Assembly (NCBI GenBank): GCA_041671125.1
Contig: JBAZCA010000004.1
Location: 87,029-151,028, forward strand
From: Patescibacteria group bacterium
Lineage (GTDB): Bacteria; Patescibacteriota; Patescibacteriia; Patescibacteriales; JBAZCA01
Reading direction: 5' to 3'
Length of the DNA stretch: 64,000 nucleotides
Shown: piece after piece, positions 1 to 58,058 of the stretch
Numbering within the stretch: position 1 is the first letter of the stretch
Layout of the letters: each line of letters starts with the position of its first letter
The notes under the pieces: model-generated
Seen by the model: the letters and a program-made list of their open reading frames with translations, nothing else
What the model was told of the DNA's origin: nothing
Database searches by the model: none
Made by a program: the position numbers and the translations under genes

Positions 1-2325
1 ACGACTTATTGTTTAAATACGAATACCAGTATTCGGAGCGCGGCTGGCGGATTTATCAGATTCATTAGAGAAAGACTTTATGTGTTTTTAGGCAAAACGG
101 CGGTTTTTCGGCGGGGGCTGGTATTCAATAAAACGAGCGGCAGTTTGGATTTGGGCAAGGGAACGGAAGTTTCCAAAGTTAAGCGGGGAAAAATAGTCGT
201 CACTAATTTTGCCGGAAGAAAAGAGGGAAGCGAAGGCGCGAGCTGGAAAGAATTATCGGCGGGGGACTGGGGCGCGGATTATTATGAAAATATAAATTCA
301 ATCGCCGGACAGGGCGGATATATTTATCTTTCTGATAAAGACGAGCGGAGGATAATAAGAACCGATGAAAAAAACGCGACAATCCTTGGCGACGCGAGCT
401 GGGGCTGGATCCCTGAAGATATAGCGGTTGATTTGGACTCTATGATTTATATTACTAGTTCTTTAAACGAACATGACGAAACGGCTCTTACCGGCTTTAA
501 TATTGTCAATCCCGAAGACGGGAGCGTGTATTATGCCGGGGATCGGGTTAAGATTTCCTGGAATTCATTCCCCGGAGCGGACGCTTACCGGCTGGTTTAC
601 AACAATGGCAAGGAAAACGCTGAAATAAAGACCGCCGAAACGATTGCGAATGTTGAGCTCAAATTTAGGGGAAATTATATTTTTAAAGTCGAGGCTTTAT
701 ACGGAGATGAGATATTGGCTCATACCGGTAATGAATTATCGCTTTTCGCGATAAATAAGAAAGAACAGGCTTTCAGGCTGCTATACCCAAAAAGTGGGTC
801 AGTTTTTGGATTAGGCGAAACCATAACGTTCTATTGGGACAGATATCAGGGGAGTTTTAAGAATCTTAATTATAAGCTGGAGTTTAAAAAGAGCGGACTT
901 TCCGTTCCGCCCGTTCCCATTGTTGAGAAGGACACTTCTTATGAGCTGATAATTGACGATAAAAATATGATCGGCGATTATGAATACATAGTAAGAGCTT
1001 ATGACGGGGACAGGTTCCTGGCCGCGGCGAATACCGGCGCGCTTTCAATCGCGGATAAATCTAAAGCTGATAGCCTTGATTTGGGAGGAAATATTTTTAA
1101 AACTAAAATTGACGGAGGAGGCTGGCGGCAGTTTTTGCCGGACCGGAAGAATAAGTTAGCGGTTAAAAGGTTTAACGCGCTAAAAGAATATCTTCAGGCG
1201 GCGAATAATGATCCAAAGGCTTTGTCTTTTAATAATCCTTCGGGGGTGGCGTTATCCGGCGGCTATATTTACATCGCCGATACCGGTAATAACAGGATTA
1301 TAAGGCTTGCTAAAAATGTGTTTTTTCCCGCTGATCTCGGCGATTACTTAATTGATTTAAAAGCGAATAACGGCAAAGACTGGTCGGCGAAAATCGCGGC
1401 TAACCGTAAAGCTGAGGCGGAAAATTACTGGCAGGTTTACAGTACCGGATCGTTAAACCTTAATAATCCCCGGGATATTTTTATCGGAAACAGCGCGTAT
1501 ATCGCCGACACGGGGAATAAAAGGGTTATATTCAGGAGAGGCAACGACTGGGTAAGTATAGGAGGCGAAGGATTTAACTGGGAGCCGAACCGGGTATATG
1601 CGATAGGCGACATGCTTTATGTCCTTGATTCTTTTAACGGGCGGATAGTTAAGATTGATATTTCCGACGGTTGCAACTCATATTTTACCAAAAGTTTGGC
1701 TTTGGGTAAAAGCTATTTTATTTTTGGAAGAAGGGGAGGAGAAAAAATGGAATGGACTTATCCGGTTGACATGCTTAATAAGTCAGGAAATTTTTATGTC
1801 GTTGATTCGGTCGGGGATTTTGGCTATTCGCTTATTACTGGAGGGAACAACCTTCTCTCCATCTATTCCCCTGAAAGCAGCCGGGACATTATGGATTCCG
1901 GCGCCCCCAACCCTTTTAACGCGGAAATTACCGCCTCCATCGCTACCGCCGATCATTTGGCGTCGTTCGGAATCGCTGACGGCTTTAATAGCGAAGAAGA
2001 CCATTACGTTGAGTGGATGCAGGGAGAAGGAATTTCCCACTGTCCTTCTATTTCCGGTTGCGCGACTTCAACCTGCCTCGGTCAATGGGATTGGGACAGT
2101 AATGCCGGAAATTGTTACCATTACACGCAAGGATGCTGCGAATACAGCACGTCAACGCCTTCCGTTTGCCTTCAGACTGGTTGTTGCGAGATTGAAACCG
2201 AGAATTGCCATGTTGGTTATTCGGTCAGTTTTAAGGATTATATTAAACCTTATAAAGATCAGGATTTAAACGATGATTTGATTTACGGCTGGATGGCGTC
2301 ATCAACCAGGGATAAGTGCGATTAG
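1..2325 (+). CDS. NHL-repeat / Ig-like-domain surface protein with Cys-rich C-terminal module (5' end probably outside window)
   Basis: ORF track gives 82..2325 (GTG), but the same frame has no stop back to position 1. NHL-like motifs: YIYLSDKDERRIIR, YIYIADTGNNRIIR, AYIADTGNKRVIF, LYVLDSFNGRIVKI. The last ~90 aa are Cys-rich (CPSISGCATSTC, GCCEY, GCCEIETENC). Confidence 0.6.
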   Translation, partial: TTYCLNTNTSIRSAAGGFIRFIRERLYVFLGKTAVFRRGLVFNKTSGSLDLGKGTEVSKVKRGKIVVTNFAGRKEGSEGASWKELSAGDWGADYYENINSIAGQGGYIYLSDKDERRIIRTDEKNATILGDASWGWIPEDIAVDLDSMIYITSSLNEHDETALTGFNIVNPEDGSVYYAGDRVKISWNSFPGADAYRLVYNNGKENAEIKTAETIANVELKFRGNYIFKVEALYGDEILAHTGNELSLFAINKKEQAFRLLYPKSGSVFGLGETITFYWDRYQGSFKNLNYKLEFKKSGLSVPPVPIVEKDTSYELIIDDKNMIGDYEYIVRAYDGDRFLAAANTGALSIADKSKADSLDLGGNIFKTKIDGGGWRQFLPDRKNKLAVKRFNALKEYLQAANNDPKALSFNNPSGVALSGGYIYIADTGNNRIIRLAKNVFFPADLGDYLIDLKANNGKDWSAKIAANRKAEAENYWQVYSTGSLNLNNPRDIFIGNSAYIADTGNKRVIFRRGNDWVSIGGEGFNWEPNRVYAIGDMLYVLDSFNGRIVKIDISDGCNSYFTKSLALGKSYFIFGRRGGEKMEWTYPVDMLNKSGNFYVVDSVGDFGYSLITGGNNLLSIYSPESSRDIMDSGAPNPFNAEITASIATADHLASFGIADGFNSEEDHYVEWMQGEGISHCPSISGCATSTCLGQWDWDSNAGNCYHYTQGCCEYSTSTPSVCLQTGCCEIETENCHVGYSVSFKDYIKPYKDQDLNDDLIYGWMASSTRDKCD

Positions 2326-13607: not shown

Positions 13608-13767
13608 ATTGTCTGAACCGCTGATTTCGCCGAGAACGCTGATGTCTTTGATTTATGTTATGTCACGGCAGAATCTCCTGAAAAGGGATTCTGCCGGTAG
13701 AAAAATTTTAGAATTAAAGAATTAGAAATTGTTTAAAAATTGAAAATTAGAAATTGAAAATTTAGAC

Positions 13768-14436
13768 ATGTCTGATATAAATGAAAACATATTCCGGGAA
13801 AAAGTTTTGGGGAAAGAGCTTAGCGGCGAAAGTCAGGCGCGGGCGGCCGGGGACAGGTTAAGGCAGGATAAGGCGGAGAGCGCGAGTAAAAAAAGAACTG
13901 AAAATCAGACCGCCGGAAACCGGAGAGGGCTCAGGATGCCGGAGACAGGAAGCGGGAATAATGGTAATATGGATAGTATGCGGGACGAACAGGATGGCGA
14001 TAAAAACAACGAGCCGGAAAGACTTAATGATCCGGTTGAGCAGGCAAAAGCGGCCGGGGATTTAGCGAAAGGAGAAAAAGAAGCTAAAGAAAAGGGAGAT
14101 AAAAAGAAAGATGAGTCTGGCGAAGAAGGTTTAGTGCAAGGATTTTTCGCGAAAAAAATAAAGAATAAAATATACAGCTCCATTCCGGGGTTTAACCTAG
14201 TCTGGGCGTTATGGAGGTTTTTAAGCGGAAAGAAATTGAAACTGGATATTGGCGATATTTTTTTGATGTCGTTTTCAAGTCTGACCGCGTTGTTTGTGGT
14301 ATTAGCTACAACCGGCTTTATAGTAATGATTACCACCTTTATGTTCCATCCCTGGGAGGCGACGAAAACTTTGGTAAGCGCGCTTTGGAGTGGATTAGAC
14401 TGGAGCGCGTTCAAGGCTATAGCCGACTTATTTTAA
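13768..14436 (+). CDS. Small protein with charged low-complexity N-terminus and two C-terminal transmembrane helices
   Basis: K/E/D/G-rich N-terminal half. C-terminal hydrophobic segments FNLVWALWRFL and LTALFVVLATTGFIVMITTFMF. Confidence 0.5.
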   Translation: MSDINENIFREKVLGKELSGESQARAAGDRLRQDKAESASKKRTENQTAGNRRGLRMPETGSGNNGNMDSMRDEQDGDKNNEPERLNDPVEQAKAAGDLAKGEKEAKEKGDKKKDESGEEGLVQGFFAKKIKNKIYSSIPGFNLVWALWRFLSGKKLKLDIGDIFLMSFSSLTALFVVLATTGFIVMITTFMFHPWEATKTLVSALWSGLDWSAFKAIADLF

Positions 14437-17232: not shown

Positions 17233-18156
17233 ATGGCGCAACAAACAAAATTAAAAGATCAGGAATTCTTCGCGAAAGTTCAGAAAACAGCCGAGGATTT
17301 GATTAATGATAATAATTTTACCGAAGCTTATAATCTTGGCGCGGGATTGAATGACAGTATAGAAAAAGCGAAAAATTTTAAAATTGAATCGCAGGAGCTG
17401 TACCGGAAATATAAGGAGTTAGCGATTAAATTACTCTGGATTGGACTGCCGGTTATGACCAAAAATGAAGTGAGAAGGATATTCCGCGATCATTTTGTTA
17501 AGAGTTTTGCTATTTTCGGATATGACCATTGGGTTAAATTAAAACCCATCTTGCTCGCGATAATGTCATTGGACGATCGGGATGCCTTTAAAAAGCAGTT
17601 AACTCAGGTCTTGGCGGAGAATCAGGAGAAAATTACCAATAAGAAACTCCTAATCAGCAGCGAAGAAAAAGATCCGACGGTCGGCAATTGGATTCTTGAT
17701 TATAACCGAAGCCTTGGGACTTCGGGAATGAGTGGAATCGCGAGAACTCAGTATCTAGTTAATAGTATAAACATAAAAAATCTTTCCAAAGAAGAAAAGG
17801 AGAGAATTCAAAAACTTTTTGAGTTGTATGAGCGGCTTAAATTATCTTCACAGACTCTTGAGGGCTATGAAATGGATGTTCCGGTAAATGAGATGGGGGT
17901 AAACGGAACAATCCGGCAGGGAGTTTTTGAGCCGACTCCGCCGGAAACAAAGAACGATAAAATTATCCAAAGGATAATTGATGAAATGATGGGGCGGATC
18001 AAGCCGACGGCAAGCGGCGGTGAGGATGTGGTTGGAGGCACAAAAGGGGTTCAAAATGAACTCACTCAGCTAAAAATCCTCGCCTCCGAATACCCGGCCG
18101 GGTCGCTTGAGCGTAGGGCGATTGAGGAGGAGATGGGGAAGCTGAATGCTGAATAA
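17233..18156 (+). CDS. Hypothetical soluble protein
   Basis: 307-aa ORF starting 14 bp after the previous gene. No motif recognised. Confidence 0.5.
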   Translation: MAQQTKLKDQEFFAKVQKTAEDLINDNNFTEAYNLGAGLNDSIEKAKNFKIESQELYRKYKELAIKLLWIGLPVMTKNEVRRIFRDHFVKSFAIFGYDHWVKLKPILLAIMSLDDRDAFKKQLTQVLAENQEKITNKKLLISSEEKDPTVGNWILDYNRSLGTSGMSGIARTQYLVNSINIKNLSKEEKERIQKLFELYERLKLSSQTLEGYEMDVPVNEMGVNGTIRQGVFEPTPPETKNDKIIQRIIDEMMGRIKPTASGGEDVVGGTKGVQNELTQLKILASEYPAGSLERRAIEEEMGKLNAE

Positions 18157-18262
18157 TGAAGCATGAATTATGAATCAAGGAGGCAAGATAAAATCATTCA
18201 CTGATTTGAACGCGTGGAAAGAGGGTCATAAACTGGTACTAATGATTCGTTATTCGTAATTC
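18151..18262. repeat. Palindromic element, family R2 (GAATTATGAAT...ATTCGTAATTC arms) enclosing a four-helix-bundle gene fragment
   Basis: Left arm gaataatgaagcatgaattatgaat; right arm attcgttattcgtaattc. Same arm vocabulary as the elements in recG and pilD. Confidence 0.65.
18170..18259 (+). pseudogene. Truncated four-helix-bundle protein (23S rRNA intervening-sequence protein family) fragment, 29 codons
   Basis: Translates MNQGGKIKSFTDLNAWKEGHKLVLMIRYS*. The K-S-F-x-D-L-x-x-W motif matches the N-terminus of the four-helix-bundle family, but only about 25% of normal length is present. Confidence 0.4.
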
Positions 18263-18271
18263 AGTTGGAAT

Positions 18272-18904
18272 ATGTCGGAACTAATCCCCTACGAAAACAT
18301 TAAAACTAAAATTTACCTGATCCGGGGCCAAAAGGTTATGATTGACCGCGATTTGGCTGTGCTTTACGGGGTTGAGACGAAGAGACTGAATGAACAAGTA
18401 AGGAGAAATATTAAAAGATTTCCTTCGGATTTTATGTTTCAGCTTTCGAGAAAAGAATATGAAAACTTGATATTCCAATTTGGCATTTCAAGTTTAGAAA
18501 TTGGCGAAGGTGAAGTTAACTTGAAGTCGCAAAATGCGACCTTGAACGAGAAAGTGGGCGAAAATTCGCAAATTTCAAGGTCGCAAAATGCGACCTTGAA
18601 AGACAGAAGAGGTTCTAATGTTAAATATCTGCCTTACGCCTTTACCGAGCACGGTGTGGCTATGCTCTCCAGCGTTCTAAAAAGCGAGCGAGCCGTAGAA
18701 ATAAATATCGCGATAATCCGGACATTTATTAAATTGCGTGATTTTGCCTTAAACTACAAGGCGCTGGCGGAAAAGATTAACGAACTGGAAAGCGGCTATA
18801 AAAATCATGATAAAAAGATCGTAGAAATATTCGCGGCGCTAAGGCTGATGGCAAGGAATGACGGGAATGAAATAAAAGAGGAAATCGGATTTAAGGCTGT
18901 CTGA
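18272..18904 (+). CDS. ORF6N-domain (KilA-N-like) DNA-binding protein
   Basis: N-terminus IYLIRGQKVMIDRDLAVLYGVETKRLNEQVRRNIKRFPSDFMFQL and YLPYAFTEHGVAMLSSVLKSERAVEINIAIIRTF are typical ORF6N signatures. Internal duplicated KSQNATL segment. Confidence 0.75.
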   Translation: MSELIPYENIKTKIYLIRGQKVMIDRDLAVLYGVETKRLNEQVRRNIKRFPSDFMFQLSRKEYENLIFQFGISSLEIGEGEVNLKSQNATLNEKVGENSQISRSQNATLKDRRGSNVKYLPYAFTEHGVAMLSSVLKSERAVEINIAIIRTFIKLRDFALNYKALAEKINELESGYKNHDKKIVEIFAALRLMARNDGNEIKEEIGFKAV

Positions 18905-18958: not shown

Positions 18959-19954
18959 ATGAAAAATAACAAACTCAACATACTCGTCTCCGGCTCGCTA
19001 GCCATTGATCGGATTATGGACTTTCCGGGGTATTTTCGGGATCATATCCTGCCGGATAAAATCCATAATTTAAACGTCTCATTTAATATCAGCGAACTGC
19101 GGGAAAATTTCGGCGGCACGGCCGGCAATATCGCTTATAACCTGGCTTTACTCGGTGAAAAGCCGGTGGTTTTAGCGACGGCCGGAGCTGACTTCGCGCC
19201 GTATAGGGCATGGTTAAAAAAACAAGGGGTGGACATTTCACATGTTAAGGAAATTAGTAACAAACTCATGGCTTCGGCCTACATAATAACCGACAAGGAT
19301 GATAATCAGATCACCGGTTTTAACATGGGCGCCATGAATGCTCCGCTCGGAAAATTTAACGAAAAACTGTTAAAAAATTCTTTGGCCATAGTTTCGCCGG
19401 GCAATACCCGTGACATGGAAAAATACGCCCGGCTTTACCAGAAAAAAAAGGTGAAGTATATTTTTGATCCCGGCCAGGCCATGACCGCCTTAAGCGATGA
19501 CGTCCTGCGAATGGCCAGCGCCGGGGCGGAGATCGTCATCGGCAATGATTACGAAATTGAATTATTGAAAAAGCGGACCGGGTGGACAACCGATAAATTA
19601 GCTGATAAACTGAAAAAGTTAATTATCACCAAAGGCGCGCGGGGTTCGGAGCTATATACTCCTATTACAAATTCACAAATTATTTCACAAATACACAAAT
19701 ACGGTGGAAAAAGTAAAATTATTATAAGGGCGGTGAAAGCCAAAGTTCTAAAAGACCCGACCGGCGCCGGGGACGCTTACCGGGCCGGGCTGATCAAGGG
19801 TTTGGCCTTGGGTTGGGAACTGGAAAAATGCGCTCAGCTCGCCAGTACAGTAGCATCATACGCGGTGGAAAAATACGGGACGCAGAAGCACTATTTTAGC
19901 TGGAAGGACTTAGAGGGAAGATATGGGATAACTTATAAAGAAAGTTTAATGTAA
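18959..19954 (+). CDS. PfkB-family carbohydrate/nucleoside kinase (adenosine kinase-like by context)
   Basis: C-terminal DPTGAGDAYRAG motif and N-terminal GG dipeptide region (NFGGTAGNIAYN). Located next to ahcY/metK. Confidence 0.8.
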   Translation: MKNNKLNILVSGSLAIDRIMDFPGYFRDHILPDKIHNLNVSFNISELRENFGGTAGNIAYNLALLGEKPVVLATAGADFAPYRAWLKKQGVDISHVKEISNKLMASAYIITDKDDNQITGFNMGAMNAPLGKFNEKLLKNSLAIVSPGNTRDMEKYARLYQKKKVKYIFDPGQAMTALSDDVLRMASAGAEIVIGNDYEIELLKKRTGWTTDKLADKLKKLIITKGARGSELYTPITNSQIISQIHKYGGKSKIIIRAVKAKVLKDPTGAGDAYRAGLIKGLALGWELEKCAQLASTVASYAVEKYGTQKHYFSWKDLEGRYGITYKESLM

Positions 19955-19973
19955 AAATTAAAAATCAAAATGT

Positions 19974-20077
19974 AAAATTAATTCGTCATTCTGAGGCCGA
20001 AGGCCGAAGAATCTCGTGATAATAGCTCTGTTCACGGGATCCTTCGCTACGCTCAGGATGACGAGAAAAAATTTGTC
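19974..20077. repeat. Palindromic element family R1, intergenic copy (104 bp, identical to 22833..22936)
   Basis: Core gtcattctgaggccgaaggccgaagaatctcgtgataatagctctgttcacgggatccttcgctacgctcaggatgac, plus shared flanks. Confidence 0.9.
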
Positions 20078-20106
20078 ATTTTGATTTTTGATTTTTACAT
20101 TTTAAA

Positions 20107-21417
20107 TTGACTATGGAATACGACATCAAAGATATAAAACTGGCCGCTGGCGGGAAGAAGAGGATTGAGTGGGCGGAAAAAGACATGCCGGTTTTAGCAG
20201 CGATTAAAAAAAGATGGGCCAAGGAGCAACCTTTTAGAGGCGTCCGCATGTCAGCCTGCCTCCATGTTACCGCCGAGACCGCCAACCTGGTACGGACCCT
20301 AAAGGAGGGAGGAGCGGAAATATTACTTTGCGCGTCCAACCCGTTATCCACCCAGGATGACGTGGCCGCTTCGCTCGTTAAAGACTATGGCGTTCCGGTT
20401 TTTGCTATTTGCGGGGAGGATAAGAAATCATATTATTCGCATCTGGTCGCGGCCCTGGATTTTTCCCCGAATGTTACCATGGACGACGGCGCTGATTTAC
20501 TGCACCTTATACACACTGACTATAAAAAGCTGGCCGGAAAAATTTATGGCAGTATGGAAGAAACTACGACCGGAGTAATCCGCTTAAAAGCTTTGGAAAA
20601 AGAAAAAAAACTTTTAGTTCCGATCATGGCGGTGAACGACGCAAAAACTAAGAACATGTTTGATAATCGCTACGGCACCGGACAATCCACCCTGGACGGA
20701 ATTATCCGGGCGGCTGATATCCTTATCGCCGGCAAGACCGTTGTCGTCGCCGGTTACGGCTGGTGCGGTCGGGGGTTTGCCTCGCGCTCCCGGGGCATGG
20801 GCGCCAAAGTGGTTGTTACCGAGGTGGATAAAATTAAAGCTTTAGAAGCGGCTATGGACGGCTTTTCGGTTATGCCCATGCGCGAAGCCGCGAAGATTGG
20901 CGACCTGTTCTGCACCTTAACCGGCGACATTAATGTTTTAAGGGGCGAGCATTTTAGGCTGATGAAGGACGGAGCTATGATCTGCAATTCCGGGCATTTT
21001 GACGTGGAAATCAATATTCCGGAACTGAAAAAAATGGCGAAAAAAATAAATAAGAACGTAAGGAATTTTGTTGATGAATATGTGATAGAAGTCAACAAGT
21101 CAACAAGTCAACAAGTCAACAAGTCAGAGAGCCGGAAGGTTAAAAGTATTTATTTGCTTGGCGAGGGGAGGCTAATTAATCTGGCGGCGGCTGAAGGGCA
21201 CCCGGCTTCGGTAATGGATATGAGTTTCGCGACTCAGGCTCTCGCTTCGGAATATGTCATAAAAAATAAGGGAAAACTGGAAAATAAAGTCCATAATGTG
21301 CCGGTTGAAATAGAAGACTGGATTGCGGATCTTAAGCTGAAGTCCATGGGGATTAGCGTGGATAAGCTGACGACTGAACAGGAAAAATATCTTAAGAGTT
21401 GGGAGATAGGAACGTAG
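20107..21417 (+). CDS. ahcY: Adenosylhomocysteinase
   Basis: Motifs DDGADL, ETTTGV, NAD-binding [12 protein letters not shown], and [23 protein letters not shown]. Confidence 0.92.
21091..21126 (+). repeat. Tandem octanucleotide repeat (GTCAACAA) x4.5 inside ahcY
   Basis: gtcaacaa repeated four times plus gtca. Encodes [12 protein letters not shown] within an insertion relative to the usual YxLxDGRxIYLL region. Confidence 0.9.
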
Positions 21418-21421
21418 ATAG

Positions 21422-21523
21422 AATTTTTAATTTTTAATTTTTGAATTTTTAAAGTCCAAATTTTTCAACAAAAAAATCAAGGCATAGTTACTTAAAAATT
21501 ACAAAATTAAAAATTAAAAATTT
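21422..21523. repeat. Long AT-rich inverted repeat (about 30-bp arms) between ahcY and metK
   Basis: aatttttaatttttaatttttgaatttttaa pairs with ttaaaaattacaaaattaaaaattaaaaattt. Confidence 0.7.
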
Positions 21524-21616
21524 AATTTAAGGAAGACTAGTGGATGAGGATAGTGGGTTTTAATAGTTTTTGCTATTTACTTACTGTCCTTATCTCCTGG
21601 CTTCCTAAAAAATCGT

Positions 21617-22780: not shown

Positions 22781-22832
22781 GATAGTTTAAACATTAAAAA
22801 CATCTAAACAGAAATTAAAAATTTAAAATGCA

Positions 22833-22936
22833 AAAATTAATTCGTCATTCTGAGGCCGAAGGCCGAAGAATCTCGTGATAATAGCTCTGTTCACGGGATC
22901 CTTCGCTACGCTCAGGATGACGAGAAAAAATTTGTC
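22833..22936. repeat. Palindromic element family R1, intergenic copy (104 bp, identical to 19974..20077)
   Basis: Base-for-base identical to the copy upstream of ahcY. Confidence 0.9.
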
Positions 22937-22963
22937 TTTTGATTTTTTATTTTTGCATTCGTT

Positions 22964-23890: not shown

Positions 23891-23976
23891 GATGACCTGC
23901 CTGCCGGCAGGCAGGTTTGCTCACCCGCAAAGAGATCCCTCGCCTTTCGGCTCGGGATGATTTGCTCACCCGCAAA
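23891..23976. repeat. GC-rich repeat cluster: 20-bp perfect palindrome plus 16-bp direct repeat
   Basis: cctgcctgccggcaggcagg (23896-23915) is a perfect palindrome. tttgctcacccgcaaa occurs at 23916-23931 and 23961-23976. Confidence 0.75.
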
Positions 23977-28692: not shown

Positions 28693-28721
28693 ATAAGGTT
28701 TATTTTGTGTATTTCAAAATT

Positions 28722-28847
28722 TTCAATTATCAATGATCAATTTTCAATGAATTTTCAATGTTCCAATGAGCTAAATTAAACTTTCATAATTTAAAAATTG
28801 TTTAATTGAAAATTCATTGATCATTGTAAATTGAAAATTGATAATTT
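28722..28847. repeat. Long AT-rich inverted repeat (about 38-bp arms)
   Basis: ttcaattatcaatgatcaattttcaatgaattttcaat pairs with attgaaaattcattgatcattgtaaattgaaaattgataattt. Confidence 0.7.
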
Positions 28848-31301: not shown

Positions 31302-31341
31302 CATGGAAATTTTCAATTGTCAATTTACAATCGGCAATTGT

Positions 31342-31372
31342 AAATCTTGAGGGAGAGATGCCAGAGCGGTCG
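31342..31372 (+). pseudogene. 5' fragment of a tRNA-Ser-like gene (acceptor strand, D-arm, start of anticodon stem)
   Basis: GGAGAGA TG CCA GAGCGGTCGAA TGG G GCAG, then the tRNA fold breaks off. Confidence 0.6.
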
Positions 31373-37061: not shown

Positions 37062-37066
37062 ATTTT

Positions 37067-37210
37067 AGGCGCGAAATATTTCATTTTTTCACTGCGGAAA
37101 TCTACGCCCGCGTTTAGTGAACGCATTTCCTGAAAGCGTCTTTACTTTACTGAAGATATATCCTCAGCGCGATACATGTCCTCGCTTCAAAAATGAAATA
37201 TTTCGCGCCT
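37067..37210. repeat. 22-bp perfect inverted repeat flanking about 100 bp; right arm covers ATG 37193
   Basis: aggcgcgaaatatttcattttt (37067-37088) is the exact reverse complement of aaaaatgaaatatttcgcgcct (37189-37210). Confidence 0.85.
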
Positions 37211-38125
37211 TCAATTATTATGTTCAAGATAAAAGAAATTATTGATCCGGAAGAGTGTAAAAATATTTGGAACGAGCTAAGTCCCAATGAGTCAATCTAC
37301 GACAATTGGGATTTTCGTTATTGCTTCCATAAATACGCTCCCGCGCCTTTGCATTTTTTCGCCGGCTATCTTAATGACGAACTGATCGGTCTCCTGCCAC
37401 TTGAATATATTAACGAAGAGGGCGGCTATCTCGGGTATTTTGCCGAGGAATTCATGGAAGAAAACCGGCTGTTTATTAAGCCGGGTCGGGAAAAATATAT
37501 TCCCGATTTTTATGACTCGGTTAAAGGGGATATAATGATAGACGATTTGTCCGGAGAAGACGCCTTTACCTCCGGACTGCCGCTTGAGGATTACAAATAT
37601 GTTTTACCGCTTAACGGGTTAAAAGGCTTTAAAGACCACCTGGAAAAATCATTTTCTTCAAAGCGCCGCCGGCAGTTTTTAAAAGTTAATAGTGAAATTG
37701 AGAAGAACGGAATTAAAATCATTCATAATAATTACGATGACATTGATTTGCTTTTTGAACTGAACATAAAGCGGCACGGTAAAGAGTCATATTTAAGCGA
37801 GCCGCACAAAAAGGAAATTTTTAAAGACCTGGCAAGCTTGTTTAAAGTTGAGATGCTGACCGCGGAGATAAGCGGAAAAAAACAAGGCGTGTCTTATTCA
37901 ATTCTCCATAACGGCGTTTATAATTACCTTTCGGTAGGAGCCAATTTGACCGGCTATTCAAGTTTAGGCGCTTACATCGGCATGAAGAACATTGATTACG
38001 CCATTTTATCCGGCGCGCGCGTTTTTGACGCCGGACTCGGGGATTGCGGCTGGAAACACCTTTGGCATTTTGACCGGGTACCTCAATATTCTTTAGCCAG
38101 AATCAATAACCAAATCCGTTATTAA
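37193..38125 (+). CDS. FemAB/CelD-like GNAT (Acetyltransf_6-type) protein
   Basis: C-terminal region (GVSYSILHNGVYNYLSVGAN...GARVFDAGLGDCGWKHLW) resembles the BioF2/CelD/FemAB-like acetyltransferase fold family. The start could instead be ATG 37220. Confidence 0.5.
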   Translation: MKYFAPSIIMFKIKEIIDPEECKNIWNELSPNESIYDNWDFRYCFHKYAPAPLHFFAGYLNDELIGLLPLEYINEEGGYLGYFAEEFMEENRLFIKPGREKYIPDFYDSVKGDIMIDDLSGEDAFTSGLPLEDYKYVLPLNGLKGFKDHLEKSFSSKRRRQFLKVNSEIEKNGIKIIHNNYDDIDLLFELNIKRHGKESYLSEPHKKEIFKDLASLFKVEMLTAEISGKKQGVSYSILHNGVYNYLSVGANLTGYSSLGAYIGMKNIDYAILSGARVFDAGLGDCGWKHLWHFDRVPQYSLARINNQIRY

Positions 38126-39381: not shown

Positions 39382-39697
39382 AGGCCTTTTTTCAAAAGGT
39401 TGAAACTAGCTAGACTGGTCCTCGTTCCGGGTAATCGGGACGGGAGTCGCTCTAGCAATATAAATTAAAATATTTAAAAAATATTTCGCCCGGAAGAAGC
39501 TCTCTTCCCCGAAAGAAATATTCCCGTTATAATATACCATATCGCGAAAAATTGCAAGAGGGGATATAATTTCATGCGTTCGGAAATAATAAATTGATAT
39601 TTATTATTTCCTCACTTTATTCAATTATAAAGCCAAACTTATAAAGAGGCAATAGTATTTTTAGAAAAAGAAGCGGGATTTTTTTAGGATTAAAATT

Positions 39698-41857
39698 ATG
39701 CTTGAAGCGGGTAGTAATATTTTGGATCTAAGCGGGGTTGGGGAAGCGACCGTGCGGGAATTAAAAAAGGTTGGCGTGGAAAAAATCCGTGACCTCTTAT
39801 TTTATTTTCCTTTCCGTTATGATGATTTTTCCCGGACAATTCCCATTGCCAAAATTAAAATTGGTGAAAACGCCAATATAATCGGCCAGATTGAACTCTT
39901 AGAAGCGAGGCGCAGTCCGCGGCGGCGCGCGCATGTAACAGAAGCGCTTATCCGGGACGCAACCGGCAGTCTCAGGGTTGTTTGGTTTAACCAGCCTTTT
40001 ATCGCCCGCCAATTCGCGGCCGGTGACACGATTTCCATCGCCGGAAAAGCGTCCGAAGACTACGGCGGAGCCGTGATGATTTCTCCTTTTTACGAGAGAG
40101 CCGGAACAGTTATCCACAGCCGGGAAAAATTCGCGGCAAAAAAACCGCCAGGAGGAACTCTTTCTTACTTTCATACCCGGGGACTGGTTCCGGTTTATCA
40201 TCTTTCCGGAAAATTAAACCAGAAGCGGTTAAGGTCGCTGATGGGCAAGGCCATTTATATCGCGGAAAAATTTCCCGATTGGGTTCCGCTGGAAGCGAGA
40301 GGAAGAAAGTATTTATCCCTGCCGGAAGCTGTTAGGCTCATTCATTTTCCAAAAAATCAAAAGGACGCCGCGAGCGCTAAAAAACGTTTCTCTTTCCAGG
40401 AGTTATTTTTAGTCCAGCTCCGGTCGCAAATGGCGAGAAGGGAGATGGATTCGTGCCTCGCCCATCGGCTGAAATTTTTTGAAAAAGAGACCCGCGATTT
40501 CGTCTTTAGCCTGCCGTTCCGGCTTACTGACGCCCAGAAGAAAGCGGCCTGGGAAATTTTACGCGACCTGGAAAAAGAGCGGCCGATGGCCAGGCTTTTG
40601 ACCGGAGACGTCGGGTCAGGTAAAACTATAGTGGCGGCCATCGCTATACTGAACGCGGTTTTAAACGGCAAGCAGGCGGTTCTTATGGCGCCGACCGAGA
40701 TTCTCGCCAAACAGCATTTCGCGACGCTCAGCGGGCTGTTTTCGGGACTGGACTTTAAAATCGGGTTGGTTACTTCGGGGGAGAAAATTACGAATTACGA
40801 ATTACGAATTACGAATAATGAATTAAAGGCTAAGAAGAGAAAGGAAACCCATGATTCATTATTCATAATTCGTAATTCACAGGTAATTATCGGCACGCAC
40901 GCCTTGCTTGAGGAAAAAGTGGCATTTAACAATTTGGCTCTGGCGATAATAGACGAACAGCACCGTTTCGGCGTGGAACAGAGAAAAGCCCTGATTGAAA
41001 AAGCGACGGCCAGGGGCATTAGAAAAAAGTTCGCCCCGCATTTTCTTTCCATGACCGCCACGCCCATCCCGCGCAGTCTCGCGCTTACCCTATACGGCGA
41101 ACTGGAAGTTTCCGCAATCAATGAAATGCCTAAGGGGAGAAAAAAAATCCTTACCCGGGTAATTCCCGAAGAAAAACGAGAAGCGGCTTATGGGTTTATC
41201 CGTAAAAAGGCGGACGAAGGACGGCAGATATTCGTTATCTGCCCGCTTATTGACCCTTCCGACCGGCTCGGAGTTAAGTCAGTAAAAGAAGAATACGAAA
41301 AATTGAACAAGCTGGTTTTTCCGGATTTGAAAGTCGGGCTTTTGCACGGCCGGCTAAATTCGCGGGAAAAAGACAGGGTGATGAGAGATTTTTCTTCCGG
41401 CAAAATAAAAGTACTCGTTTCTACTTCGGTAATTGAAGTCGGAATTGATATTCCCAACGCGACCGTTATGATGATAGAAGGCGCCGACCGCTTTGGTCTC
41501 GCGCAGATCCATCAGTTCCGGGGAAGGGTTGGGCGGGGCGCTCACGAATCATTTTGTTTCCTTTTTACCGACAGTGCGGCGGAAAAAACCCTGGCCCGGT
41601 TAAAAGCGGTGGAGACCGAAAATGACGGGTTTAAGCTCGCCAGGATGGATCTTGAACTCCGCGGCCCGGGCGAAGTTTACGGAATTGCCCAAAAAGGTTT
41701 TCCCGAATTTCGCGTAGCTTCGCTTTTTGATTACGAGCTTATGAGCGAGGCTAAAGCGGCGGCGGAGAAAATAATGAAAATTGACCCGAGCCTTAACCGC
41801 TGGCCGCTATTGAAGCGCGAACTCGGAGAATGGAAAAAAGGAACGCATATGGAGTAG
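39698..41857 (+). CDS. recG: ATP-dependent DNA helicase RecG with an in-frame palindromic-element insertion
   Basis: Wedge/OB N-terminus, helicase motifs GDVGSGKT, DEQHRFG, MTATPIPRS, QFRGRVGRG. Confidence 0.9.
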   Translation: MLEAGSNILDLSGVGEATVRELKKVGVEKIRDLLFYFPFRYDDFSRTIPIAKIKIGENANIIGQIELLEARRSPRRRAHVTEALIRDATGSLRVVWFNQPFIARQFAAGDTISIAGKASEDYGGAVMISPFYERAGTVIHSREKFAAKKPPGGTLSYFHTRGLVPVYHLSGKLNQKRLRSLMGKAIYIAEKFPDWVPLEARGRKYLSLPEAVRLIHFPKNQKDAASAKKRFSFQELFLVQLRSQMARREMDSCLAHRLKFFEKETRDFVFSLPFRLTDAQKKAAWEILRDLEKERPMARLLTGDVGSGKTIVAAIAILNAVLNGKQAVLMAPTEILAKQHFATLSGLFSGLDFKIGLVTSGEKITNYELRITNNELKAKKRKETHDSLFIIRNSQVIIGTHALLEEKVAFNNLALAIIDEQHRFGVEQRKALIEKATARGIRKKFAPHFLSMTATPIPRSLALTLYGELEVSAINEMPKGRKKILTRVIPEEKREAAYGFIRKKADEGRQIFVICPLIDPSDRLGVKSVKEEYEKLNKLVFPDLKVGLLHGRLNSREKDRVMRDFSSGKIKVLVSTSVIEVGIDIPNATVMMIEGADRFGLAQIHQFRGRVGRGAHESFCFLFTDSAAEKTLARLKAVETENDGFKLARMDLELRGPGEVYGIAQKGFPEFRVASLFDYELMSEAKAAAEKIMKIDPSLNRWPLLKRELGEWKKGTHME
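40787..40878. repeat. Palindromic element family R2, in-frame inside recG
   Basis: Left arm attacgaattacgaattacgaattacgaataatgaat; right arm attcattattcataattcgtaattc. Translates ITNYELRITNNELKAKKRKETHDSLFIIRNS. Confidence 0.8.
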
Positions 41858-41998
41858 ATGAAAAAATTTTAAATTTTCAATTATAAATTTTAAATTAATA
41901 AGTGAAATGAATCTCAGCTTTTGTAAGATAATTTAAAATTTGTCATTTAAAATTTAATTAAAATTAAAAATTTTAAATTTAAAATTGTTTAGGTTTAA

Positions 41999-49050: not shown

Positions 49051-49093
49051 TGTAATTTTGCTGGTTCTCCGTTCCGGGCGAATTACCCGTTGA

Positions 49094-49244
49094 GATTATA
49101 TTCTGAGGGCATGAATTTATTCGTTTGGAAATGGTAAATTGAGATTTACCATTTCCTCACTCATTGCGATTATATCTGAGGATATAAACTTATTCGTTCG
49201 GAAATGGCGAATTAATATTCGCCATTTCCTCACTCATTGCGATT
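49094..49244 (+). promoter_or_regulatory. Tandem ~73-bp repeat (2 copies) upstream of pilB, each with a 13-bp-stem hairpin
   Basis: Copy A 49094-49167, copy B 49168-49240. Hairpins ggaaatggtaaat-tgag-atttaccatttcc and ggaaatggcgaat-taat-attcgccatttcc differ by compensatory changes. Confidence 0.6.
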
Positions 49245-50981
49245 ATGAATAATTTTTTAGTTGGCTTAGTGGAAAAGAAAAAAATTACCGAAGAACAGGC
49301 CGGGGAAATAGAGAAGCTCATGTCCGAGACGGGAAAATCTCCCGAAGAGCTTATAGCTGACCGCGGAATACTTGATATTGAGGATATCTACAGTCAGAAG
49401 GCCGGTTTTTTTAACCTTCCCTATCAGAGTTTGATAGGAAAAAAAATTGACGAGAAGATTCTGAATTTTATTCCTTTTGAGGCTGCGGAAAATTATCAGA
49501 TTATATGTTTTGACAAGAAAGAAAATGAGTTTTACCTGGGACTCGCCGACCCGGGAAATTTCAAAGCCATTGAAGCGGTTGACTTTCTTGCCAAAAAAAA
49601 AGGAGTAAAAGTAAAATATTTTTTTATTTCTTCGGTAAGCTTTGATCAAGCACTTAAGCAATATCGTTCATTAAATCAGGAGGTTAACACGGCTCTTGAG
49701 CGAAAAGCGCTGGAGAAAAAAAAGGATGATGAAAAAGAGGAAAAGGAAAAACCGGAGTTTCAAGAAGTGATTAAGAGCGCGCCGGTAGCGAAGATAGTTT
49801 CGGTGATTATCCGCCACGCGGTTGAAGGTCGGGCGTCGGATATCCATATTGAGCCTTCCGCCAAAGAAAGCCGGGTGCGCTACCGGATTGACGGCATCCT
49901 CCATACGTCGCTTATAATGCCCAAAGATATTCACGGCGCCGTGGTGGCGAGAATTAAAGTTCTTTCCAACTTAAAATTAGACGAAACCCGCATTCCTCAG
50001 GATGGACGCATAAGGGAAGTTGTAAATGACAAAGAAATTGATTTCAGAATTTCCATCCTTCCTCTTACTAATGATGACGAGAAGGTGGTTATGAGAATAC
50101 TTGACGTTACCCATGGAGCGCCGGAGCTTACCGATCTCGGCTACATGGGGGAAGGTCTCGTGGTCATTCAGAAAAATCTTAAGAAAACTGACGGCATGAT
50201 GCTTGTCACCGGTCCAACCGGTTCGGGAAAATCAACCACCCTTTTCTCGGTTTTGAATAAATTGAACAAAGAAGGGGTAAATATTTCTACGCTTGAAGAT
50301 CCGGTTGAGTATAAGATCAAAGGCGTAAATCAGTCTCAGGTAAGGCAGGAAGTGGGTTTTACTTTTGCCTCCGGCCTCCGTTCGCTTCTCAGGCAGGATC
50401 CGGATATTGTAATGGTTGGGGAAATCCGCGATAATGAGACGGCCGAGCTGGCGATTCACGCCAGCCTTACGGGGCATTTTGTTCTTTCCACGCTCCATAC
50501 TAATGACGCCATCGGCGCTCTTCCTAGGCTTTTAGATATGAAAGTTGAGCCATTTTTATTAGGCTCTACCCTGAATATCGTTATAGCTCAGAGGCTGGTG
50601 AGGAGGATATGCCCGCATTGCGCGGATAAATATAATCTTCCTAAAGATATTATCGCCGAAGTTAAAGCTACCTTTGAAGGCATCCCCGCGGAAATCATAA
50701 AAAAGCATTTTCCTAAGCTGGAAAAGAGGGATTTTGTTTTTATTAAGGGTAAAGGTTGTCCGCGATGTGGCAATACCGGCTATAGCGGGCGGTTGGCGGT
50801 AGCCGAAGTTCTTGATGTTAACGACAAAATAAGGGATATAATTCTTGATAAATCAAAAAACCTGAGTCTTAAAGAAGCTAAAGAGTCGCAACTCTTCATC
50901 TCTTTAAAGGAAGACGGAGTAATCAAAGTTCTCCTGGGGCTCACAACTATGGAAGAGGTAATGAGAATTATACAGGATTAA
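49245..50981 (+). CDS. pilB: Type IV pilus assembly ATPase PilB (GspE family)
   Basis: Walker A GPTGSGKSTT, MVGEIRD, TGHFVLSTLHTND, tetracysteine CPHC...CPRC. Confidence 0.92.
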   Translation: MNNFLVGLVEKKKITEEQAGEIEKLMSETGKSPEELIADRGILDIEDIYSQKAGFFNLPYQSLIGKKIDEKILNFIPFEAAENYQIICFDKKENEFYLGLADPGNFKAIEAVDFLAKKKGVKVKYFFISSVSFDQALKQYRSLNQEVNTALERKALEKKKDDEKEEKEKPEFQEVIKSAPVAKIVSVIIRHAVEGRASDIHIEPSAKESRVRYRIDGILHTSLIMPKDIHGAVVARIKVLSNLKLDETRIPQDGRIREVVNDKEIDFRISILPLTNDDEKVVMRILDVTHGAPELTDLGYMGEGLVVIQKNLKKTDGMMLVTGPTGSGKSTTLFSVLNKLNKEGVNISTLEDPVEYKIKGVNQSQVRQEVGFTFASGLRSLLRQDPDIVMVGEIRDNETAELAIHASLTGHFVLSTLHTNDAIGALPRLLDMKVEPFLLGSTLNIVIAQRLVRRICPHCADKYNLPKDIIAEVKATFEGIPAEIIKKHFPKLEKRDFVFIKGKGCPRCGNTGYSGRLAVAEVLDVNDKIRDIILDKSKNLSLKEAKESQLFISLKEDGVIKVLLGLTTMEEVMRIIQD

Positions 50982-53609: not shown

Positions 53610-53714
53610 ATTTTACGAATGACAATTGCCCTGCCCGAAACGCTGCGCGTATCGTTGCGGGCAGGCGACTGACAATTTAAAAAATTTTAATTTTAATAAT
53701 GACAAAGACATTTT

Positions 53715-54284: not shown

Positions 54285-54453
54285 GTGGATAAGTTTAATC
54301 AATCCTTCAATCTTCAATTTACAATTTTAAAGTTGTTATTAATTGCAGATTGATAATTGAAGGATTGAAGATTGATTATTAATTATTCGCGATTGTTAAT
54401 TTAATTCCTGGGATTAAATGAATAATCGCGAGCCTAACGAGAGGGGGTGAATT

Positions 54454-57245: not shown

Positions 57246-58058
57246 ATGCTTTTAGCTTTTTACATTTTCATTTTTATTTTTGGCAGCATAATCGGCTCTT
57301 TTCTAAACTGTCTTATCTGGCGCCTCCATACCGGCGAAAGCATGTGGGGCAGGTCCCATTGCCCTAAATGTAAAAAGATGATCGCCTGGCATGATAATAT
57401 TCCGGTATTTAGTTTCATTATGTTAAAAGGGAAGTGCCGATATTGCCATAAATCTATATCTTGGCAATATCCGGCCGTTGAAGTAATAACGGGATTGCTG
57501 TTTGTTATAGCTTGGGTCAGTGAATTAAGAATTATGAATTATGAATTATGGTTTTATCCGGACTTCGTTATTCATAATTCGTTATTCATAATTCACATTT
57601 TCCGGGATTGGTTCCTTATCTCGGTCATGATGATTATTTTTATTTATGACCTGCGCTGGTATTTGATTTTAGATATTGTAACGCTCCCGGCGGCCGCCAT
57701 TTTGCTGGCATTGAATTTAATGCTGGGTCACTCTTGGCAGACCTTGCTGTTTTCTGCTATAATAGGAAGTAGCTTCTTTCTAATACAGTTTGTTATTTCA
57801 AAAGGAAGGTGGATCGGCGGAGGCGATATACGCTTAGGGTTTTTAATCGGACTGGCTTTAGGGTGGCCGAATACGCTCGTAGCGATATTTTTAGCTTATT
57901 TCATCGGGTCAATCGCGGGATTGGGGTTAATAGCTTCTAAACGCAAAAAATGGGGTTCGGAGATTCCGCTGGGAGTATTTCTATCGCTCGGCACGATAAT
58001 AACTCTTTTTTGGGGGGATAGAATTTTAAACTGGTATTTGAATATTTTTAAATTTTGA
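57246..58058 (+). CDS. pilD: Prepilin peptidase PilD (A24 family) with an in-frame palindromic-element insertion
   Basis: N-terminal CPKC...CRYC zinc motif and GGGDIRLG catalytic Asp motif. Confidence 0.9.
   Translation: MLLAFYIFIFIFGSIIGSFLNCLIWRLHTGESMWGRSHCPKCKKMIAWHDNIPVFSFIMLKGKCRYCHKSISWQYPAVEVITGLLFVIAWVSELRIMNYELWFYPDFVIHNSLFIIHIFRDWFLISVMMIIFIYDLRWYLILDIVTLPAAAILLALNLMLGHSWQTLLFSAIIGSSFFLIQFVISKGRWIGGGDIRLGFLIGLALGWPNTLVAIFLAYFIGSIAGLGLIASKRKKWGSEIPLGVFLSLGTIITLFWGDRILNWYLNIFKF
57522..57594. repeat. Palindromic element family R2, in-frame inside pilD
   Basis: Left arm gaattaagaattatgaattatgaattatgg; right arm cgttattcataattcgttattcataattc. Translates ELRIMNYELWFYPDFVIHNSLFIIH. Confidence 0.8.

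Follow-up and report, generated by a model that had tools for sequence, protein, structure and literature searches.

An in-frame, heptamer-armed hairpin in the recG gene of a Patescibacteria group bacterium and its probable kinship with four-helix-bundle cassettes

The recG gene on a 64,000-nucleotide stretch of a Patescibacteria group bacterium (contig JBAZCA010000004.1, positions 87,029 to 151,028 of the forward strand; hereafter the window) contains a hairpin-forming element that is read in frame with its host. We favor the hypothesis, which we consider probable, that this element is a miniature member, without an open reading frame (ORF) of its own, of a family of heptamer-armed hairpins of the four-helix-bundle (4HB) or intervening-sequence (IVS) type, and that it became established, in frame and translated, where RecG has a permissive loop. 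Judged by their nucleotide sequences, the recG copy, a second in-frame copy in pilD, and an intergenic copy share one arm family, and this family frames genuine 4HB genes.

The recG element is an imperfect, AT-rich palindrome of 94 bases (window 40785-40878) whose arms are built of tandem 7-nt units: the left arm is (GAATWAY)n and the right arm is its complement. Tandem Repeats Finder reports AATTACG x5.7 at 40786-40825 for the left arm and CATAATT x4.3 at 40850-40879 for the right arm, and the best arm pair, 40799-40823 with 40854-40878, extends over 25 nt at 96% complementarity around a 30-nt A/G-rich loop. Its RNA fold has an energy of -32 kcal/mol, whereas dinucleotide shuffles give -13.1 +/- 2.7 (z = -6.96), and 0 of 200 shuffles equal it. 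It is read as ITNYELRITNNELKAKKRKETHDSLFIIRNS, that is, as 31 aa of RecG (residues 364-394); an earlier interpretation of the window made from its letters (the sequence-only reading) had given the element, both arms, and this peptide exactly. The motif GAATTAYGAAT matches 11 times in the window, where 0.25 matches are expected, and is confined to three clusters (18144-18262, 40785-40878, and 57520-57601), and a degenerate 18-mer of the arm matches 21 times against 1.8 expected, all in the same three clusters with the exception of one stray match (54371-54388). The pilD copy, which the sequence-only reading had also recognized, is in frame between the A24_N_bact and Peptidase_A24 domains, folds at -27.7 kcal/mol (z = -6.6), and is kept in an 81%-identical ortholog (L211).

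The intergenic cluster ties these arms to 4HB genes. Between its arms, in the reading frame at 18167-18256, lies a 29-aa fragment that had been proposed to derive from a 4HB gene. Searches of Pfam, NCBIfam, and the PDB with this fragment gave no match; an exhaustive phmmer search of 1.84 billion representatives gave 22 matches at E <= 1e-3, of which 19 are N-terminal with 65-91% identity, and the longest are PF05635 proteins (P0260, E = 6.7e-37; P0244; P0253; and P0262). Among six-frame translations of all collected sequence, a hidden Markov model (HMM) of 120 4HB proteins from the Candidate Phyla Radiation (CPR) scores the window fragment at E = 9e-9. Because of the PF05635 matches and this HMM score, the proposed 4HB identity of the fragment is correct. 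Three of the phmmer matches, the top-scoring P0241 and P0242 as well as P0250, were set aside as spurious, being of low complexity and having none of the 4HB motifs. The intergenic copy is a 4HB cassette from which most of the ORF has been deleted. In metagenomes, 4HB remnants form a decay series of 130, 78, 64, and 37 aa in which N-terminal residues are joined to later parts of the protein or to arm peptides (P0247, 78 aa; P0256, 64 aa; and P0246, 37 aa, ending in ..IHNTVYIIQNT), and the 29-codon remnant in the window fits near the end of such a deletion series.

Complete 4HB genes are found between arms of the same type. On the CPR contig L209, a complete 130-aa 4HB gene (P0260; PF05635 E = 7e-37) lies between def and fmt and is framed by ..atgaagcatgaataatgaataaagaagtATG on the left, which can be aligned with window 18144-18175, and by ATTCATAATTCATAATTCATGCTTCCTAATTC on the right; the gene ends in ..GAA ATT CAT AAT TCA TAA, with its stop codon inside the right arm. 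Many annotated N-termini of the 120 CPR homologs of P0260 are likewise arm-coded and of the MNxELxIMN type (MNQELGIMNNN.. and MNHELRIMND..), as are most of their C-termini (..IHNS/IRDS/ILNS). In Bacteroidota and others, 4HB genes directly abut the arms (L057, L038, and L067), that of L057 matching PF05635 at E = 5e-29 and TIGR02436 at E = 9e-32; complete cassettes with these arms are those of L209, L057, and L038. Shortened 4HB genes also occur: two of them, of 78 and 98 aa (L212 10908-11144 and 19005-19301), each lie between AAATTTT-type AT-rich arms within 20 kb of a pil cluster that is syntenic with the window, one directly 3' of pilD. In L205 (184-240 and 330-415), a (GTGTTTT)n array comes after a partial 4HB gene; recG of the sister contig L204 contains the complementary array, (AACACGA)n. 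The same part of L205 has two tRNA-like genes near the partial 4HB gene, split by an ATCGGAT/TTCGGAT heptamer hairpin.

The arm family is widespread. A scan of genomes, one per species, for GAATTAYGAATTAYGAAT gave at least 120 loci, from Bacteroidota, Cyanobacteria, Ignavibacteria, Acidobacteria, Chloroflexi, Lentisphaerae, Treponema, Planctomycetes, and Firmicutes; the arrays are mostly intergenic and often adjoin arrays of other heptamers, and among the matches listed 7 of 142 lie well inside a long ORF. Viral contigs hold at least 119 such arm arrays. A metagenome scan with the RecG alignment returned mostly distant RecGs; among the matches listed, the sole element carrier was L121, which has three or four arm copies in 22 kb. 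Of a 23S rRNA context, which the sequence-only reading had suggested checking, no example came up: the window contains no rRNA, and 0 of the 212 loci compared match a conserved 23S motif. The precedent for that context is the 23S IVS of Coxiella burnetii, in which three tandem GACAGAT heptamers, variable in number, stand just upstream of a 4HB (S23p) ORF that is decaying by deletion, and in which RNase III cuts at the first heptamer repeat (PMC4990558). In CPR bacteria, rRNA insertion sequences sometimes encode 23S_rRNA_IVP (PMC11270868).

Several lines of evidence bear on what the element does to its host protein. It sits between motifs Ia (PTEILAKQH) and Ib, ahead of GTHAL/motif II (DEQH), and the segment that bears it is 15 aa longer than in the RecGs of E. 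coli (9wm0) and T. maritima (1gm5), with the alignment gap at the element. The sequence-only reading was therefore right that the segment is longer than in E. coli, although its figure of roughly 16 aa becomes 15 aa by alignment to 9wm0. It had also named two findings that would tell against a mobile hairpin, namely a lack of further copies combined with conservation of the segment in distant RecGs, and a recG pseudogene; instead there are two more sites in the window, the E. coli and T. maritima proteins have a gap, and the recG ORF is intact with all its domains (RecG_wedge, DEAD, Helicase_C, and RecG_dom3_C). A Patescibacteria metagenome-assembled genome encodes an identical protein, which is annotated there as RecG, and the same protein is found in NCBI, JGI, and ENA records. 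We therefore rejected a pseudogene or an assembly artefact, given the intact ORF, the identical protein in these records, and the presence of the element in the closest relatives. An Rfam scan of the window found three tRNAs only, with no intron or ribozyme family and no rRNA. An intron or intein likewise has little support, since the Rfam scan gave no self-splicing RNA family and the insert is 31 aa long with its right half modeled within the RecG fold. Thus, given an intact ORF with all RecG domains, no Rfam intron or ribozyme, a predicted helix integrated in the fold, and a segment 15 aa longer than in solved RecGs, the likeliest outcome is that the element is read through as part of RecG and not excised.

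The AlphaFold2 model of the window RecG was built on 96 orthologs and has a mean predicted local distance difference test score (pLDDT) of 81. The pLDDT is below 50 at residues 372-381 (TNNELKAKKR), which come from most of the loop and the adjoining end of the left arm, and a helix at residues 387-393 (SLFIIRN, from the right arm) runs into the GTHAL strand at 396-399. According to the model, the left arm and loop would add ~15 residues of mostly disordered surface peptide, and the right arm would supply the helix before motif Ib, where repeat-free orthologs have an ordinary helix (..IEIIKNGE..).

The codons of the arms provide a further line of evidence. Since 7 and 3 share no factor, an array of heptamers yields one set of seven codons whichever frame is read. 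(GAATTAC)n is stop-free in all frames, (GAATTAT)n contains TGA, and the complementary arm (RTAATTC)n has a TAA every 21 nt whatever the frame. Where TTA TGA would fall in a left arm, the in-frame copies have TTA CGA (window recG), TTA AGA (L121, and pilD of the window and of L211), or TTA GGA (L205), and where (ATAATTC)n gives TCA TAA TTC, all in-frame right arms read TCA/TCG TTA TTC, the window recG having TCA TTA TTC. The frame of recG survives because of these two changes, that is, C, A, or G in place of T at the left-arm TGA and TTA in place of TAA in the right arm. The stop remains in an intergenic hairpin of L121 (6318-6418; CAT AAT TCA TAA), and in L209 TCA TAA TTC supplies the natural stop of the 4HB gene. 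The arm codons show selection for an open frame, and since the stop-avoiding substitutions are fixed in in-frame copies, long-term translation is implied.

We classed the RecG segment between IGLVT and GTHAL in 119 orthologs, most of which are 54-60% identical to the window protein. A clear GAATWAY hairpin peptide (NYE..IMN..K-rich..HNSLFIIHNS) is present in 38, and a single recognizable, degenerate arm in 21. The others have a (TGTATTW)n hairpin (..NNVLCILYN..HNTKYIIQNT; 6 orthologs), a (CAATTTT)n direct array (FSIFNFQFSN; 7), PMTN/QIPN-type repeats (11), an (AACACGA)n array (1), or other or no repeats (35), the last class including a 22-aa repeat-free form, NGKKLKATDIVAEAD. In forms with a direct array only, the array is followed by an ordinary helix (..KKKMIEIIKNGEVD), whereas in hairpin forms the right-arm SLFIIHNS stands in place of that helix. 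The syntenic L203, at 66% aa identity, has neither repeat nor helix in a segment of 66 nt, and the RecG of L207 also lacks the element. The hairpin-type orthologs fold at z = -3.3 to -8.4, compared with about -0.6 to +0.8 for array-only or repeat-free forms (L203, L204, L206, and L207). At the corresponding PilD loop, nearly all of ~115 orthologs carry varied heptamer-type peptides. In a neighbor-joining tree of 118 RecGs the repeat classes are interleaved, and this tree is star-like and poorly resolved, such that a single ancient gain followed by turnover and a series of many gains would look alike in it. A different repeat insert varies at another fixed loop of RecG: P0003, P0089, and P0107 have 1 to 5 in-frame tandem copies of PLRLSYSEAS (10 aa) between ..CPLIDPSD and KLGVKSV (alignment A1 columns 826-875).

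Close relatives show how the site changes. The closest, L201 (91% aa identity), has the element of the window with the same unit count plus two nested G+C-rich mini-hairpins, which add 30 nt to the left arm and 21 nt to the right arm, both in frame; L202 has one of 42 nt. These belong to a second family (CCTGCC...GGCAGG, 21-42 nt) found in frame within the recG arms (L201 526-723 and L202 11063-11272) and read as PVSLSASRGG, PARPAGG, and SPARNEPRECGVHCG; in the window itself, its members (23896-23915 and 53630-53665) are intergenic and just past stop codons, with 3 matches against 0.04 expected. The syntenic L204 and L205 are 100% identical over ~2 kb up to motif Ia, 42-58% identical across ~200 nt, and 88-100% identical thereafter, with the (AACACGA)n array in one (L204 ~5407-5620) and the GAATWAY hairpin in the other (L205 ~6760-6970). 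The mosaic is sharp, and the recG segment has been exchanged by recombination between near-identical genomes. The recG site is a long-standing hot spot, and the element is not a simple recent insertion. This qualifies the proposal of the sequence-only reading that an IVS-like hairpin had colonized protein-coding genes while preserving the frame. The arm family that frames 4HB genes, the heptamers of the Coxiella IVS, and the stop-avoiding changes uphold it in part, but colonization is too simple a term, because most CPR orthologs have varied heptamers at the same sites, the segment is exchanged by recombination, and the right arm occupies the place of the ancestral helix.

We propose that a 4HB-type hairpin, or an already shortened derivative, entered the permissive recG loop in an ancestor of the Falkowbacteria-like CPR group. 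It would then have been inherited, have decayed in some lineages and been swapped for other heptamer families in others, and have spread between strains by homologous recombination. The arms would change by replication slippage in 7-nt steps, and either selection acting on the hairpin or template-switch repair from arm to arm could maintain their complementarity. For the host, the recG element is most likely neutral or slightly costly, and it is plausible that the hairpin predicted in the recG mRNA is an RNase III substrate.

Some observations weigh against this hypothesis. We infer the descent of the recG copy from an ORF-bearing cassette from the arms alone, because the loop has no recognizable 4HB remnant, an HMM of the 4HB C-terminal tail giving no match there. 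By eye the loop resembles that tail (NGLIKKSKxIHNS), and there is a 9-nt DNA identity (ATTAAAGGC), but the candidate was dropped since the tail HMM matches no RecG or PilD insert. A 4HB neighbor was found at 3 of the 120 genome (GAATTAY)n loci listed and at none of the 119 viral loci listed; therefore, the arrays can stand alone, and 4HB genes might settle in pre-existing hairpins. No target-site duplication, transposase, or other mobility function turned up in the window, which was not scanned for transposases. Inverted arms are present at the recG element, no direct duplication is visible at its ends, and the filled site of the window has diverged too far from the empty sites of L203 and L207 for junctions to be defined. 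The only ORF associated with the arm family is 4HB, which is not known to have transposase activity. Finally, the occurrence of different heptamer families at the same RecG and PilD sites in different lineages may be read as evolution in situ or as selection for a hairpin.

The latter possibility is that the RNA or DNA structure itself is selected in recG and pilD, as a nuclease site (for example, for RNase III, setting mRNA dosage) or as a recombination cruciform, the sequence being free as long as the arms pair. We regard this as rather unlikely. It would explain why both arms change together at the same site, in recG between GAATTAT/ATAATTC (window, L121, and L205) and TGTATTW/WAATACA (L208, 24/25 complementary) and in pilD between (GAATTAT)n/(ATAATTC)n (window and L211) and (GAATTTT)n/(AAAATTC)n (L212), and it is consistent with all variant hairpins folding far better than shuffles (z = -3.3 to -8.4), with a right arm that is identical in L121 and L205 when each RecG is only 58-59% identical to that of the window, with the recombination breakpoint ~75 nt upstream of the repeat in L204/L205, and with the cutting of the Coxiella IVS by RNase III at its heptamer repeats (PMC4990558). 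However, many orthologs do without a hairpin (L203 and L207; direct arrays in L204 and L206; 35 of 119 in the class with other or no repeats and 21 of 119 degenerate). Joint change of the arms is also a poor witness, in that two unrelated palindromes, once aligned, always mimic covariation; we dropped the counting of covariation across orthologs for this reason, as aligning two palindromes of possibly independent origin yields it by construction. In quasipalindrome mutagenesis, template switching corrects arms toward complementarity, and such correction can preserve pairing without selection. Furthermore, the stop-avoiding changes create arm mismatches in L121 and L205, and therefore the frame outranks the pairing. 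A local origin without any mobile element, in which AT-rich codons of the native helix (..ATT GAA ATT ATT AAA AAT GGA GAA..) seeded slippage, template switching made the inverted copy, and the likeness to other copies reflects a genome-wide heptamer bias, seems to us improbable as well. SLFIIHNS stands exactly where orthologs have (M)IEIIKNGE, the segments are of similar length (147 nt in L205 and 150 nt in L204), in L204 and L206 nothing but a direct array precedes the native helix, which is intact, and at least eight other intergenic arrays or hairpins of other heptamers lie in the window. Heptamer arrays are, moreover, the commonest long simple repeats in many bacteria, and arrays of TAACTGA, for which no vehicle is known, have been described from Beggiatoaceae, Cyanobacteria, and Bacteroidetes (PMC4679880). 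Nevertheless, the motif is confined to three sites of the window with 0.25 matches expected by chance, the same 18-nt arm recurs at the at least 120 genome loci over many phyla and on the at least 119 viral contigs, and identical arm sequences are found in distant RecG orthologs. The arm accompanies a 4HB remnant in the window and frames complete 4HB genes elsewhere, which independent slippage would not produce.

There is little support for phase variation or for a peptide of adaptive value. We think it quite improbable that selection on the protein keeps the 31 residues as a functional RecG loop specific to the lineage, the palindrome being incidental. The peptide pattern NYE..IMN..K-rich..HNSLFIIHNS does recur in at least 38 orthologs at 55-60% identity, and its right-arm part is a predicted helix within the RecA-like domain; yet in pilD, whose product is an unrelated membrane protein, this nucleotide repeat is read as the same peptides, the repeat is present in non-coding DNA too, synonymous arm positions are conserved, the loop is variable and predicted to be disordered, and orthologs without the insert exist. 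A contingency locus, at which gain or loss of a 7-nt unit would shift the recG frame as an on/off switch, is very improbable indeed: the unit is not a multiple of 3 and its number varies between orthologs, but at most four identical units stand in a row, the arms are imperfect, L201 has the same unit count as the window, all 120 listed orthologs are in frame, and the stop-avoiding substitutions are fixed in the in-frame copies.

The preferred hypothesis, a miniature hairpin of the 4HB/IVS type translated within RecG, may be compared with known systems. The Rickettsia palindromic elements (RPEs), reportedly described by Ogata et al. in 2000, are likewise dispersed palindromic repeats of ~100 nt, intergenic as well as in frame in conserved genes, translated as an extra surface peptide, and present in some orthologs while absent or decayed in others. 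RPEs are mentioned in PMC1779305. Correspondingly, the window has three copies in 64 kb, intact ORFs and domains of recG and pilD, and empty sites in L203 and L207. In contrast to RPEs, the element of the window has an unrelated CPR/Patescibacteria host and tandem-heptamer arms in place of a unique consensus, its family is tied to a 4HB ORF, several repeat families occupy the same protein site, and part of the element replaces a native helix. Homology to the RPE consensus is unlikely because of the heptamer build and the CPR host; the element behaves as RPEs do, as a selfish palindrome that its host gene tolerates in frame, but by the features compared it does not belong to their family. With the 23S rRNA IVSs that carry an S23p/4HB ORF (Coxiella, Leptospira, and Salmonella), the family shares a long stem, a 4HB ORF in the loop of sister copies, tandem heptamers of varying copy number by the ORF, ORF decay by deletion, and a sporadic distribution that suggests horizontal spread (PMC4990558). 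The recG element differs in lying within a protein gene and not in helix 25 or 45 of an rRNA, in lacking an ORF, and in having to be translated through; its unit is GAATWAY and not the GACAGAT of Coxiella, and RNase III cutting, known for the IVS, is only a candidate here.

The STRR repeats of cyanobacteria and the TAACTGA arrays of Beggiatoaceae, Cyanobacteria, and Bacteroidetes, which are described as direct repeats, are similar in their 7-nt units, mostly intergenic position, patchy occurrence across phyla, and want of a known vehicle, and in the stop codons of one orientation, which limit placement within genes (PMC4679880). Unlike them, the window arrays are paired as inverted hairpin arms, stand in frame in housekeeping genes, and are linked to 4HB genes; neither "four helix" nor "intervening sequence" occurs in the text of PMC4679880. 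The enterobacterial ERIC and RU-1..3 repeats (PMC2759123, PMC2229807) resemble miniature inverted-repeat transposable elements and are sometimes found inside ORFs, where they add peptide sequence, but differ in sequence and structure and have neither heptamer periodicity nor a 4HB ORF. We rejected a REP/BIME element, as these are 20-40 nt, G+C-rich, and extragenic, whereas the recG element is ~94 nt, AT-rich, and intragenic.

Some RecGs harbor an insert of another kind. In P0016 (L332 2066-4645), and also in P0055, P0066, P0082, and P0088, a complete GxxExxY domain (TIGR04256 E = 3e-32; Pfam PDDEXK_3) lies in frame between motifs II and III. On either side of it stand arrays of 10-nt units in inverted orientation, with GCGGAyTAAC/GCGGACxxxx to the left and AGTCCGCATC to the right. 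This insert, of the nuclease-fold type, is a whole hairpin-armed small-ORF cassette that is read through within its host RecG. It is tempting, if speculative, to go further and suppose that hairpin-armed small-ORF cassettes, including those with 4HB and GxxExxY genes, form one pan-bacterial mobile class of which rRNA IVSs are only the rRNA-resident subset, and that the CPR derivatives are standing hypervariable in-frame modules at fixed loops of RecG and PilD, kept through processing (e.g., by RNase III) or as recombination hot spots, with a regulatory or diversifying role. We doubt that all of this will hold.

In the literature that we searched, outside of which most subscription journals fell, no description of in-frame 4HB/IVS-type hairpins in CPR genes was found. 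An in-frame palindrome itself has precedents; what is new is that heptamer repeats and 4HB/IVS cassettes are here tied to each other and to sites in CPR housekeeping genes that are fixed, hypervariable, and in frame. The locus links two puzzles, namely the nature and movement of IVSs and 4HB proteins, a question since the 1990s (PMC4990558), and the accumulation of heptanucleotide repeats in bacteria (PMC4679880), in that the same heptamer arms frame 4HB genes, form ORF-less intergenic hairpins, and sit translated in essential-type genes. This suggests that hairpin elements that flank 4HB genes can also live inside ordinary protein genes. It explains why CPR proteins vary in length and why odd peptides such as ITNYELRITN, HNSLFIIHNS, and FSIFNFQF recur in them; annotation, alignment, and structure prediction can be led astray by arm-coded peptides of this sort. 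Natural filled, empty, and variant alleles (window, L201, L203, L204/L205, L207, and L208) make the system experimentally tractable. The features of the three copies and their hosts are listed in the table.

Table. Positions in the window of the three hairpin copies, their parts, and their host genes
Feature	Positions	Strand	Description
recG ORF, intact host gene	39698..41857 (2,160 nt)	+	719 aa; ORF and Pfam domains
recG left arm	40785..40825	+	~5.7 heptamers: AATTACG x4, then AATAATG; read as (K)ITNYELRITNNE
recG loop, A/G-rich	40826..40849	+	Read as LKAKKRKE(T); predicted disordered
recG right arm	40850..40878	+	ATTCATT ATTCATA ATTCGTA ATTC; read as HDSLFIIRNS
Intergenic left arm	18144..18175	+	GAATGCT GAATAAT GAAGCAT GAATTAT GAAT; overlaps stop of ORF 17233-18156; homologous to L209 left arm
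4HB (PF05635) gene remnant	18170..18259	+	Start codon and 28 codons, MNQGGKIKSFTDLNAWKEGHKLVLMIRYS*; runs into right arm
Intergenic right arm	18238..18262	+	ATTCGTTATTCGTAATTC
pilD-like prepilin peptidase ORF, second host gene	57246..58058	+	270 aa; Pfam A24_N_bact residues 11-91, Peptidase_A24 residues 122-225
In-frame GAATWAY hairpin in pilD	57520..57601	+	Read as ELRIMNYELWFYPDFVIHNSLFIIH; arms 27 nt, 89% complementary

The window holds other repeats. At least eight further hairpins or arrays of other AT-rich heptamers, all intergenic, are found at 13733-13762, 19948-20101, 21415-21529, 22789-22955, 28717-28847, 31308-31345, 41861-41990, and 54296-54378, with units AAAATTG, TAAAAAT/TTTTGAT, AATTTTT, AATTWTC, AATTGTC, AAATTTT, and TCAATCC/ATTGAAG; one lies directly past the recG stop codon and one between two tRNA-Ser genes. 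A family of ~70-nt repeats (..TTCGYTCGGAAAT-hairpin-ATTTCCTCRCTTTAYTCAATTATA..) occurs in the window at 37062-37215, 39560-39650, and 49090-49246 and in L202 at 9730-9930. Upstream of recG there is one copy in the window and there are three in tandem in L202; the repeat at 49090-49246 is a 73-nt x2.1 tandem, and that at 37062-37215 sits within a short hairpin whose L202 counterpart is empty.

An ORF of 3,105 aa (4290-13607), one of 222 aa (13768-14436), and one of 912 aa (14480-17218) with many predicted membrane segments precede the 4HB remnant and an ORF6N-domain gene (18272-18904), in which a 54-nt x2 tandem repeat is found at 18496-18600. The region of the 3,105-aa and 912-aa ORFs may be a mobile or secretion-related island.

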